A stretch of 64,000 nt of DNA. Origin: Spongiibacteraceae bacterium. Lineage in GTDB: Bacteria; Pseudomonadota; Gammaproteobacteria; Pseudomonadales; Dasaniaceae. The stretch spans positions 62,211-126,210 of the forward strand of contig JANQLG010000012.1 of the NCBI GenBank assembly GCA_028280715.1, written 5' to 3'. Within the stretch, counting starts at the first letter, position 1; every line of letters starts with the position of its first letter. A program made the position numbers and the translations under genes. Under the pieces are notes generated by a model. It did no database searches. It was given only the letters and a program-made list of their open reading frames with translations, and was not told the DNA's origin. Shown here in pieces: positions 20,351-22,701 of this stretch.

Positions 20351-21559
20351 TTAACCCTTAACACACACCACCTGCTTTAACGTGTGAACCACTTCCACCA
20401 GATCAGATTGGTTGGCCATCACCTCATCAATATCTTTGTAAGCGCCAGGAATTTCATCAATAACCTTTGAATCCTTCCTACATTCCACGCCCTTTGTTTG
20501 CTCTAACAAATCAGCACGCTTAAAGACTTTGCGTGCAGCACTGCGACTCATCCTGCGCCCGGCACCGTGAGAGCAACTGCAAAACGCATCCGCATTGCCC
20601 TTGCCTCTGACAATGTAAGAACGTGCGCCCATACTGCCCGGTATAATACCCAACTCGCCTTCTCGTGCACTAATCGCCCCTTTGCGCGTAACAAAAACGT
20701 TCTCGCCAAAATGTGATTCTTTCTGCACATAATTATGGTGGCAATTAATGGCAGTGTTTGTGACACTAAATTTTGGCAATAGTGGCTGGATGGCTCGTAT
20801 CACCAAACCCATCATTTGCTCACGATTGATGCGTGCATATTCCTGAGCCCAATTAACCGCTTCTATATAGTCATCAAAATAATCAGCGCCCTCGGTAAAG
20901 TACGCCAGATCTTTATCGGGCAAATGATGCTGATGCCTGGAAATATCTTTCCGGGCCAGCTGGATAAAATGTCTGCCTATGGCATTGCCAATACCTCGGC
21001 TCCCCGAATGCAGCATGATCCAGACTTGATCACTTTGATCGATACATAATTCGATAAAGTGATTACCACTACCCAAGGTTCCCATTTGTTTAACCCAGGC
21101 TTGCTGAGGCTGCCTCAGCATTTTCAGCAATACCGGGTGTTTTTCAAATAGTCGATCAACACCAGGCGCCAACGTTTGGCACGCCTTGGTTCTGGCAGAA
21201 ACTAATTTATGCGCGCTACTGCCCACTGGTACTGCACGCTCAATAGCTTCGCGAATATTTTTCAAGTTATCCGGCAACTGTGAACTTTTCAACGACAAAC
21301 ACACAGCATTCATACCACAACCGATATCGACACCCACCGCAGCAGGAATAATGGCGGACTTGGTTGGAATCACCGAGCCTACCGTTGCGCCAATGCCAGC
21401 ATGCACATCGGGCATAGCTGCAATATGTGAATGCACGATGGGCAGCTGCGCAATATTTTTTAATTGCGTCAAAGCAAGATTATCAATATCACGAGTATAA
21501 ATCTTTACCGGCTTCACGCCATTTTTTGCATTTTTGTTTAATTCGATTTTAACTGTCAT
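20351..21559 (-). CDS. rtcB: RtcB-family 3'-phosphate/5'-hydroxyl RNA ligase (copy 1)
   Basis: Strong similarity to E. coli RtcB and to the copy at 31178..32404 (AAMPDVHxGxGATxGSVxPT, GVDIGCGM, GSRGxGN, CSHGAGR). The TGATG stop/start overlap with the upstream small ORF gives ATG 21559. A GTG at 21562 is also possible. Confidence 0.9.
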   Translation of the reverse strand: MTVKIELNKNAKNGVKPVKIYTRDIDNLALTQLKNIAQLPIVHSHIAAMPDVHAGIGATVGSVIPTKSAIIPAAVGVDIGCGMNAVCLSLKSSQLPDNLKNIREAIERAVPVGSSAHKLVSARTKACQTLAPGVDRLFEKHPVLLKMLRQPQQAWVKQMGTLGSGNHFIELCIDQSDQVWIMLHSGSRGIGNAIGRHFIQLARKDISRHQHHLPDKDLAYFTEGADYFDDYIEAVNWAQEYARINREQMMGLVIRAIQPLLPKFSVTNTAINCHHNYVQKESHFGENVFVTRKGAISAREGELGIIPGSMGARSYIVRGKGNADAFCSCSHGAGRRMSRSAARKVFKRADLLEQTKGVECRKDSKVIDEIPGAYKDIDEVMANQSDLVEVVHTLKQVVCVKG

Positions 21560-21744
21560 CACGATACCACTATCAAATATTGATTAATGATTTCATCAAG
21601 TGCGCCGCAGCGCGACTCGCTCATCAGTTTCCTGGTGGCGAGTTTTGCTGCTTTGCGCTTGGCTCCATTGGATTTCTCATGCACCCCACCCTTTCGCATA
21701 ATGGGATTGATGGCATGAGGGTTTCTCCGTTTTTGCTTAGCCAT
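21559..21744 (-). CDS. Small highly basic protein of unknown function
   Basis: 61 aa. A perfect AGGAGG lies 7 nt upstream of the ATG at 21744. The stop overlaps the rtcB start, and the N-terminal two thirds are Lys/Arg-rich. Confidence 0.6.
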   Translation of the reverse strand: MAKQKRRNPHAINPIMRKGGVHEKSNGAKRKAAKLATRKLMSESRCGALDEIINQYLIVVS

Positions 21745-21756
21745 TTTCTTCCTCCT

Positions 21757-22701
21757 CTAGGCGGCCATACGAAACCATTGTTGTTTTTTCAATGTTTTTA
21801 ACCGACGCTTGGCCTGTTTATCGCCAGCAATAAAGGAAGGGCCTTCATTGACTGTTTCAAAACAAAACTGCCTTGGCAGTTTGGTATACAGGGAGCGAGG
21901 CGGTTTTGAATAATTAATATGCTTCAATGCCGCACCTGTCTCAAAGCTATGGTAGTAAATTGTATTAATCCCTATTTCTTCTACCAAAAACTTAATAGCT
22001 GCACTCAACATCGCCTCACTCCATAGTGCTTTGTGTCGGTTAATTTCAGATTGCAAATAGGTCATTGCCCTATCGACATAAATATCTAATCCGTAATAGC
22101 AAAAGGCTTTTTCCTTTTCTTTAATTGCCAACTTCATTTCATCGGCCAAATATTCGACTTCGCGCAACCAATCATTCTGAATTTCTTCAATCAGTGCTTC
22201 ACCTGTATTAAAGTCCAGATCAATCCTGGCCCAAGCCAAAGTACTACGCGTATCAGATATAGGATGGGCAAAGAATTTAAACAAATCCAAATCGTTACCA
22301 ATGCAATGACGATAGATCTGATCGTGGCGGTTACAGAAATTCATCTGCAATACCAAGTTAGTACCGGGGCGAGAGGTTTGATAATAGCGATAACGCTTTA
22401 CCCTTTCCCTCCCCCATGTTCCTAAAGTCAAAACATAGGATTCGTAATTTTGTGGCCATAATGTCTCAATATCCTCTGCTCTAAGAACACCACTACCGCA
22501 ACGAGCCAACAACGATGTAAATAAAGGCTTATTCATTAACTTGCCTAACTTACTTTTCTTTAAATCCGCCACCTGGCTAGGTCCATTACGTAGCAAATTG
22601 CGCTGTAATAAATAAGCCGCGTAATAATCCTTATAATAAGTAAATAAGGTCCTATCCTTTGGCAGGCAATCAATAATTTCCTGTGCTAATTTTGCTTGCA
22701 T
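21757..22701 (-). CDS. Hypothetical protein, first gene of the rtcB-1 operon
   Basis: 314-aa ORF with no family recognised. Its stop is followed directly by the RBS of the small basic ORF. Confidence 0.55.
   Translation of the reverse strand: MQAKLAQEIIDCLPKDRTLFTYYKDYYAAYLLQRNLLRNGPSQVADLKKSKLGKLMNKPLFTSLLARCGSGVLRAEDIETLWPQNYESYVLTLGTWGRERVKRYRYYQTSRPGTNLVLQMNFCNRHDQIYRHCIGNDLDLFKFFAHPISDTRSTLAWARIDLDFNTGEALIEEIQNDWLREVEYLADEMKLAIKEKEKAFCYYGLDIYVDRAMTYLQSEINRHKALWSEAMLSAAIKFLVEEIGINTIYYHSFETGAALKHINYSKPPRSLYTKLPRQFCFETVNEGPSFIAGDKQAKRRLKTLKKQQWFRMAA

Follow-up and report, generated by a model that had tools for sequence, protein, structure and literature searches.

A 61-residue basic protein encoded beside a second RtcB ligase is a candidate ArfA-like ribosome rescue peptide

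In a 64,000-nucleotide stretch of DNA from a Spongiibacteraceae bacterium (GenBank assembly GCA_028280715.1, contig JANQLG010000012.1, positions 62,211 to 126,210; hereafter the window), a second gene for the RNA ligase RtcB (rtcB2) lies on the minus strand behind genes for a 314-residue protein (U314) and a 61-residue basic protein (S61). We found that the S61 gene has the design of the ribosome rescue genes arfA and brfA, with a conserved core, an in-frame hairpin before the stop codon and a non-conserved tail. In our proposal, which we consider about as likely as not, S61 acts as a rescue peptide in the manner of ArfA and BrfA: it would be produced from a non-stop message and gated by trans-translation, a dedicated RtcB would carry out repair after the rescue, and U314 would be a GNAT-fold accessory. 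The biochemical steps of this proposal are ones that we infer throughout.

Results

The module and its immediate surroundings comprise the following features:

22702..22990, minus strand: structured operon leader (alignment with L001-L003, RNAalifold)
22701..21757, minus strand: U314, 314-residue protein, with its stop codon TAG at 21759-21757
21756-21751, minus strand: AGGAGG Shine-Dalgarno (SD) sequence for S61, abutting the U314 stop, with a 6-nt spacer to the S61 ATG
21744..21559, minus strand: S61, 61-residue basic protein, product starting MAKQKRRNPHAINPIMRKGGVHEKSNGAKRKAAKLATRK; residues 1-48 form the conserved core and residues 49-61 the non-conserved tail
21597..21661, minus strand: RNA hairpin within the S61 frame (folding, z tests and conservation in relatives)
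20351..21559, minus strand: RtcB2, 3'-phosphate/5'-OH RNA ligase (PF01139)

This arrangement had been described in an earlier sequence-only reading, and every statement made there about the sequence agreed with the coordinates: AGGAGG and then the S61 frame directly follow the U314 stop, and the TGA of S61 shares its A with an ATG (TGATG) at 21559. This ATG is likely the rtcB2 start, as homologues begin MPVK... or MTVK...; an automatic open reading frame (ORF) call extends the gene to a GTG at 21562. Calling this RtcB the second one was also correct, since a first (RtcB1) is encoded 10 kb away at 31178-32404, together with RtcA and RtcR.

In order to define the S61 family, a profile search was run over 1.84 billion representative proteins, with clusters at 50% identity. 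It returned 794 matches at E<=1e-3, of which 141 reached E<=1e-10; almost all were 49-126 residues long, and they always matched profile positions 1 to about 48. Over 116 distinct S61 cores, with a GC content of 36-81%, the entropy by codon position was 0.86/0.64/1.60 bits, and this pattern is a coding signature. Judged from these relatives, S61 is a real protein of a large unannotated family, whose cultivable carriers include Microbulbifer, Hahella, Cellvibrio and Kangiella. Its core carries the motif RNxHAxxP(I/L)MRKGGVHEKSxxAKR followed by a basic stretch. Conservation stops abruptly after about residue 48 (after ...SESRCGAL), even where two proteins share 96% identity before this point. 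The 3' end of the hairpin coincides with this limit of protein conservation; beyond it the tails vary and are often hydrophobic. In one protein of 367 residues (P0347) the S61 core is joined to an unrelated C-terminal region of about 300 residues; this could be a real fusion or an artefact of read-through. Structure prediction, which the sequence-only reading had proposed for both unknowns, was uninformative for S61: AlphaFold2 gave a low-confidence model (predicted local distance difference test, pLDDT, of 70) with an extended N-terminus and one long helix. Neither S61 nor U314 had a match in Pfam, NCBIfam or PADLOC, and their profiles found nothing at E<=10 among PDB sequences; the two families are named in none of the current libraries.

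Two samples of related loci were compared with the window. The U314-anchored sample consisted of 80 genome loci fetched through U314, in which RtcB and S61 were found by tblastn, and the S61-anchored sample of 80 metagenome loci fetched through S61; labels such as L001 denote individual loci in this comparison. The window hairpin, with a minimum free energy of -31.7 kcal/mol, had a z of -4.2 against dinucleotide shuffles and of -6.5 against synonymous-codon resampling. It ends about 36-40 nt before the S61 stop and the rtcB start, and is conserved in L001-L003, L005 and L086. Codon resampling was used in order to separate selection on the RNA from selection on the protein, and also because the clade of the window has diverged too little for covariation. 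Amino acids were held fixed, codons were drawn from local usage, and scoring was restricted to the coding sequence from the motif to the stop. The results were as follows:

S61, 41 genes (U314-anchored loci and the window): mean z -3.34; 33 below -2 and 25 below -3; window -6.5
U314, mid-gene control: mean z -0.44
U314, 3'-end control: mean z -0.72
Two authentic arfA genes: z -4.0 and -4.6, with the hairpin ending 14-17 nt before the stop
S61-anchored set, 86 ORFs: mean z -2.28; 49 below -2

An RNA hairpin in the S61 frame, upstream of the stop, is under selection. Its sequence differs between clades and its position is kept: for 36 of the 42 S61 genes the best single hairpin ended before the stop, the median distance being 27 nt. 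In 9 of the 42 a U-run follows, which makes the hairpin of these genes an intrinsic terminator inside the S61 ORF. An Rfam scan over 19-35 kb of the window returned tRNAs only, so that neither the S61 hairpin nor the operon leader is a known family. These features recall those described for arfA, which has an RNase III hairpin or a terminator and a hydrophobic, unstable tail and is repressed by trans-translation, and for brfA, with its rho-independent terminator before the stop (PMC8012679). S61 genes were also found inside long tRNA arrays (L038, 3134-3400; L111, about 5001-5290; L040, 1543-1686; L064, 4263-4367). In L038, L040 and L111 the gene sits between tRNA-Ala and tRNA-Asp, and in L038 and L111 the S61 tail or frame continues through the tRNA-Asp gene, so that tRNA processing would also leave a non-stop message.

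The second line of evidence is the company that S61 keeps. Among the 80 U314-anchored loci, RtcB was nearby in 47 and S61 in 45, the commonest order being RtcB-U314-S61; the order of the window, U314-S61-RtcB, was confined to its closest relatives, which are metagenome-assembled genomes (MAGs) of Ketobacter/Ketobacteraceae. When S61 was the anchor, RtcB was adjacent in 31 of 80 loci, 22 of these without U314, and U314 was present in 14. The three genes are truly linked, yet each also occurs in the absence of the others. Chance does not account for the arrangement, whose linkage is kept in dozens of genomes. The operon that had been read from the window alone is thus borne out elsewhere: the two upstream ORFs are conserved next to rtcB, and co-occurrence is seen in both anchored samples.

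Clustering of all ORFs within 4 kb of U314 revealed that at 7 loci a protein of 140-153 residues of the ArfB type is encoded immediately downstream of U314 or overlapping it. This protein has the GGQ motif ('SGPGGQHVNK'), a basic tail and a PF00472 match at 1e-18. The slot just 3' of U314 is the most frequent position of S61, and the 7 loci have no S61. Sister loci within the same frame (a divergent HTH gene, then HNH, Band7, U314 and RtcB) have S61 instead, but close to the start of the cluster. In function, ArfB corresponds to ArfA plus RF2, and the occurrence of ArfB in place of S61 is hence the strongest contextual argument for S61 in peptide release. According to Burroughs & Aravind (2019; PMC6514570), a pseudouridine synthase is the only conserved neighbour of ArfB; on that statement, the U314-ArfB-RtcB linkage seems to be unreported.

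RtcB2 is a full-length match to PF01139 (435 bits against a cut-off of 27, residues 33-403 covered). Its translation contains the motifs GSGNHF, HSGSRG, CHHNY and SHGAGR, which we take, from E. coli RtcB, to hold the catalytic histidine and the metal ligands. It falls below the cut-off of TIGR03073 (release_rtcB), the model for PrfH-linked RtcB (138 vs 271.8 bits), and no prfH-like ORF was found in its neighbourhood in the ORF list or by Pfam scan. Of 63 neighbouring RtcBs in related loci, 61 were nearer to RtcB2 (mean identity 70.8%) than to RtcB1 (56.5%); by sequence identity, the RtcBs adjoining S61 or U314 are a clade of their own. In L002, a Ketobacteraceae MAG and the closest complete relative, the RtcB after S61 (9138-9702) is matched over two fragments only (residues 1-56 and 267-403), the probable sign of a deletion or pseudogene.

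For U314 there are 820 homologues, none of them named or assigned a Pfam domain. An AlphaFold2 model built with 46 homologues reached a pLDDT of 93.4 and a predicted template modelling score of 0.92. Its structural matches were essentially GNAT-fold proteins only, these Foldseek matches being weak, with none at E<=1e-3, and no nuclease was among them. According to this model the core of U314 is a GNAT-like alpha/beta fold, to which an N-terminal helical extension (about 85 extra residues) and large insertions are added. The sequence-only reading had very tentatively compared a D...EEIQND stretch with a PD-(D/E)xK nuclease motif. The stretch is present (RIDLDF..GEALIEEIQND), and its D161, E172, E173, Q175 and D177 are invariant in the 46 homologues. 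In the confident GNAT-fold model, however, the strands with RIDLD and EEIQND belong to the GNAT sheet, and the nuclease reading was rejected on fold, the model showing no restriction-endonuclease-like fold with the D...(D/E)xK triad. Further invariant polar residues are Q108, N115, N121, H146, R159, E229, E242, H251, S270, Y272 and C280, and this abundance suggests that U314 is an enzyme. No GNAT or acetyltransferase model of Pfam matched U314, and the alignment shows no evident counterpart of the acetyl-CoA pyrophosphate-binding loop Q/R-x-x-G-x-G/A, which GNAT proteins carry between beta4 and alpha3; in the alignment, NDWLRE follows the strand ending ...EEIQ, and the next segment is variable.

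Upstream of U314 there is a spacer of 368 nt, which is conserved in L001-L003, where U314 itself is only 61-65% identical. It contains the following elements:

22988-22960, minus strand: sigma70-like promoter TTGAAA-17-TATAGT
22951-22934, minus strand: hairpin with a U-run
22894-22835, minus strand: strong SD sequence and 19-codon upstream ORF (uORF) MFINKNSVTLLGLAGQFFS
22776-22784 and 22789-22797: 9-bp perfect inverted repeat ATTACTTAG/CTAAGTAAT with a 4-nt spacer
about 22766-22746, minus strand: second leader stem

The inverted repeat had been noticed before and is exact at 22776-22797. RNAalifold, applied to four leader sequences, gave 51 pairs, 11 of them with compensatory changes, and 4-5 of these 11 lie in the inverted repeat, which points to an RNA stem rather than an isolated operator. 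The four sequences suggest that the repeat is one stem of a conserved structured leader of about 250 nt, an RNA leader rather than a simple operator. In a predicted 11-bp helix, the start region of the uORF pairs with a conserved TTGTTGGGCC inside the uORF, and the leader with its uORF may be a ribosome-stalling attenuator. No sigma54/RtcR promoter was found upstream of U314; the sole good site precedes rtcB1 (32471-32486).

Further upstream of the module, the neighbourhood holds these genes:

23070-24739, minus strand: two tandem RlaP nucleotidyltransferases (Pfam), stop and start overlapping at 23834-23837
24766-26019, minus strand: CCA-adding enzyme (Pfam)
26061-27206, minus strand: Band7/SPFH protein (Pfam)
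27773-28336, minus strand: HNH protein (Pfam)
28414-29143, minus strand: seven tRNA genes (ARAGORN, Rfam)

They belong to an 'RNA repair island' at 23070-34224, which runs from RtcR (plus strand) through the sigma54-like site, RtcB1, RtcA, the tRNA array, HNH, Band7/SPFH and the CCA-adding enzyme to the two RlaP genes, and is followed by the leader and U314-S61-RtcB2. The full tRNA array of the window (27571-29143, minus strand) has 8 genes between rtcA and Band7, on the strand of the operon, in the order Asn, His, Gln, Cys, Pro, Lys, Leu(tag), the HNH gene and Met; the tRNA-Leu is only 79 nt long. Several of these tRNAs are classic targets of anticodon nucleases. RlaP, for its part, adds nucleotides to damaged RNA 3' ends (PMC12776372). 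Two ORFs flanking rtcR have no Pfam domain (34219-34980, minus strand, 253 residues; 35062-35991, plus strand, 309 residues).

In L025, L038, L040, L042 and L111, the genes for HNH, Band7, U314 and RtcB are directly preceded by 18-29 tRNA genes arrayed on the same strand; simple RtcB-U314-S61 loci have no such arrays. In cyanobacteria, long tRNA arrays are linked to HNH and RtcB genes and are induced by translation inhibitors (PMC8421152), and the TrcR regulon of Anabaena includes a tRNA operon, rtcB, HNH, slipin/Band7, GNAT and small hypothetical genes (PMC10272220). In the Anabaena trcR mutant, asr0855 and alr0857, which adjoin trcR and the HNH gene alr0856, are derepressed (PMC10272220). 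The recurrence of Band7, HNH and tRNA arrays, together with these parallels, indicates that the module belongs to a proteobacterial counterpart of these translational-stress islands. In the window, a same-strand array of 8 tRNAs is likewise linked to HNH and to RtcB1/RtcB2.

On the other side of the module, just downstream of RtcB2, a 42-nt near-perfect palindrome (TGCATACAGTTATTTCTGT-AATA-ACAGAAATAACTGTATGCA, 20204-20245) abuts the start codon of a MarR-family gene (19661-20203) and is overlapped by a sigma70-like site (20264-20236). It is probably the operator of the MarR-family gene.

Discussion

We propose that the S61 message would be cut or terminated at the hairpin, and that S61 would be translated from a non-stop message. 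The product would then be destroyed by trans-translation unless tmRNA is saturated. Under massive stalling, for example after ribotoxin attack, the truncated basic peptide would build up, bind the empty A site and mRNA channel, and promote release, presumably via a release factor acting in trans. The co-encoded RtcB of its own clade would finally re-ligate the broken RNA. U314 would serve as a GNAT-fold accessory that partners either S61 or the ArfB-type hydrolase.

Several observations weigh against this proposal. In the S61-anchored set the RtcB-linked, long-tail forms show a strong hairpin signal, which becomes weaker and mixed among the short stand-alone ones, and covariation within the clade of the window is thin, with 1 of 19 pairs compensatory. 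In the window no U-run follows the hairpin, and with rtcB located downstream of S61, cleavage at this place would uncouple rtcB translation, which the proposal does not account for. The functions of the three genes are also separable, as about 20 U314-anchored loci, mostly alphaproteobacterial, have U314 alone, beside guaA, and about 42 of the 80 S61-anchored loci have neither partner in the fetched DNA. An hhalign comparison of an S61 alignment with an ArfA alignment finds just the suspected local match of ArfA DPLFRQRVEKNKKGK with S61 NPIMRKGGVHEKSNGAK, at a probability of 0.25% and an E of 0.24, which is not significant.

About 30 of the partnerless S61 loci (L102-L164, high-GC metagenome contigs) share one neighbourhood of ChaC-like, amidase and HemW genes. 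The stand-alone S61 genes there are short, with tails such as ...LREPDxxE; the ChaC-like gene is always next, and amidase, HemW-like and SDR genes are nearby. This is a housekeeping context, as it is for arfA. One isolate-scale contig has a lone S61 between a cold-shock gene and a carbonic anhydrase.

The sequence-only reading had suggested that the 61-residue protein could be an RNA- or ribosome-binding cofactor of its RtcB. The ribosome part of this idea gains from the arfA/brfA gene design, from ArfB in the slot of S61 in 7 genomes and from the PrfH-RtcB2 precedent; the view of S61 as nothing but a dedicated RtcB cofactor needs revision, since about half of the S61-anchored genes stand alone, often in housekeeping surroundings, while 22 follow RtcB without U314. 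In its sharper form, the cofactor idea holds that S61 is a targeting or RNA-binding cofactor that brings RtcB to broken rRNA or tRNA and has no role in release, the in-frame hairpin being only an element of mRNA processing, stability or operon termination. We consider this rather unlikely. It would fit the highly basic character of S61, the 22 of 80 loci where S61 directly follows RtcB and the many others where it is part of RtcB-U314-S61, and the RtcB2 clade that travels with S61. As S61 is the last gene in the commonest order, a terminator would be expected nearby. Yet the hairpin precedes the stop rather than following it, and is retained where S61 lies within the operon and not at its end, as in the window. 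Moreover, RtcB is missing from the fetched DNA of about 42 of the 80 S61-anchored loci, about 30 of which share the single housekeeping neighbourhood, and the ArfB-type release factor downstream of U314 in loci without S61 points to release and not to targeting.

A further reading, which is compatible with S61 as a rescue peptide, makes U314 an acyltransferase that would act on the lysine-rich S61 (or its N-terminus) or on the ArfB tail and so control the entry of the basic peptide into the ribosome. The GNAT-like fold and the many invariant polar residues of U314 agree with such a role, and the U314 gene is tightly adjacent to or overlaps that of S61 or ArfB, both of which have Lys/Arg-rich segments. 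Nevertheless, we regard it as improbable, given that no Pfam acetyltransferase matched, that the canonical acetyl-CoA loop is not evident in the alignment, that U314 stands alone in about 20 loci and that most S61-anchored loci are without it. It is very improbable, and we rejected it, that U314 and S61 are a GNAT-type toxin-antitoxin pair (like TacT/TacA or AtaT/AtaR) beside a repair ligase: a GNAT-like protein does lie beside a small protein in an island of mobile-element flavour (HNH, tRNA array), but U314 has 314 residues (vs about 170 for a toxin) and no acetyltransferase signature, S61 is basic and downstream (vs an upstream ribbon-helix-helix (RHH) antitoxin) with no RHH or HTH family detected, the toxin-antitoxin models of PADLOC and NCBIfam gave no match, and the pairing is not strict, each gene being widespread without the other.

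Returning to S61 as a candidate rescue peptide, one functional parallel would be ArfA (PF03889; RF2-dependent). Both are small and basic, with an in-frame hairpin of the same strength in the same test, a variable hydrophobic tail, stand-alone housekeeping copies and the local resemblance between DPLFRQRVEKNKKGK and NPIMRKGGVHEKSNGAK. Homology, in contrast, has no statistical support. The S61 core motif RNxHAxxPIMRKGGVHEKS differs, and PF03889 gave no Pfam match at E<=1 for the S61 of the window or at E<=10 for 31 members. Membership in the ArfA family was rejected on these grounds and on the hhalign result: S61 may work like ArfA, and is not classed as ArfA. To our knowledge, arfA has no operonic link with RtcB and U314 like the one that is frequent for S61. 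BrfA (Bacillus) and ArfT (Francisella) are small rescue peptides that were invented independently, as is proposed here for the role of S61, and brfA shares the terminator before the stop with 9 of 42 S61 genes; their sequences are unrelated, they belong to a different phylum, and the hairpin of the window lacks a U-run. ArfB/YaeJ (PF00472, with a GGQ domain and a basic tail) shares the slot downstream of U314 in 7 loci; the basic tail of ArfB probes the empty mRNA channel. Unlike S61, ArfB carries its own hydrolase domain.

The coupling of rescue to repair has a documented precedent in the PrfH-RtcB2 pathway of E. coli (PMC9304027), which the sequence-only reading had rightly cited. As there, an RtcB paralogue is encoded beside a factor (here a candidate one) that acts on stalled ribosomes, and a second RtcB exists alongside an RtcR-controlled rtcBA operon. 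The present module differs in that prfH is absent and RtcB2 scores below TIGR03073, and in that the partners are a 61-residue peptide (ArfB in some genomes) and a GNAT-fold protein. The L-array islands and the Anabaena TrcR regulon resemble the surroundings of the module, as tRNA array, HNH, RtcB and slipin/Band7 are linked or co-induced by translation inhibitors, and the same set surrounds the module in the window, L025, L038, L040, L042 and L111. They differ in that PMC8421152 and PMC10272220 name neither the S61 nor the U314 family, the linked genes being 'hypothetical', and in the size of the array, with 8 tRNAs in the window vs up to 43 genes in published arrays (PMC8421152). Control by TrcR does not apply here, because an RtcR/sigma54 site precedes rtcB1. 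Finally, U314 departs from the GNAT superfamily in having no sequence-level GNAT match, about 85 extra N-terminal residues, large insertions and no evident canonical CoA-binding loop.

Tentatively, and with less confidence than we hold for the proposal on the window, S61 would found a widespread, unrecognised class of rescue factors (at least 794 clusters at 50% identity in gamma-, beta- and other proteobacteria), gated by trans-translation and independent of ArfA, BrfA and ArfT. In many genomes it would be firmly tied to an RtcB of its own, and sometimes also to long tRNA arrays, HNH and Band7, so that a ribotoxin-damaged translation apparatus would first be rescued and then repaired; U314 would be a new GNAT-fold enzyme whose target is the stalled complex or the rescue factor's basic tail. 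A 2021 review expects further small peptides that recruit release factors, which are hard to find for want of sequence similarity (PMC8012679). The arfA-like design of a conserved core, an in-frame hairpin and a junk tail provides a sequence-based route to such peptides, and here indicates a family with hundreds of clusters. Literature searches for RtcB with rescue factors returned PrfH only, and PrfH is described as the only known rescue factor for ribotoxin-damaged ribosomes (PMC12829566). If the proposal is true, a second, unrelated rescue partner is wired to RtcB, and the coupling of rescue to repair would be a general strategy. It would also provide candidate functions for two 'hypothetical' families found in the company of long tRNA arrays, which may have a role in translational stress (PMC8421152).

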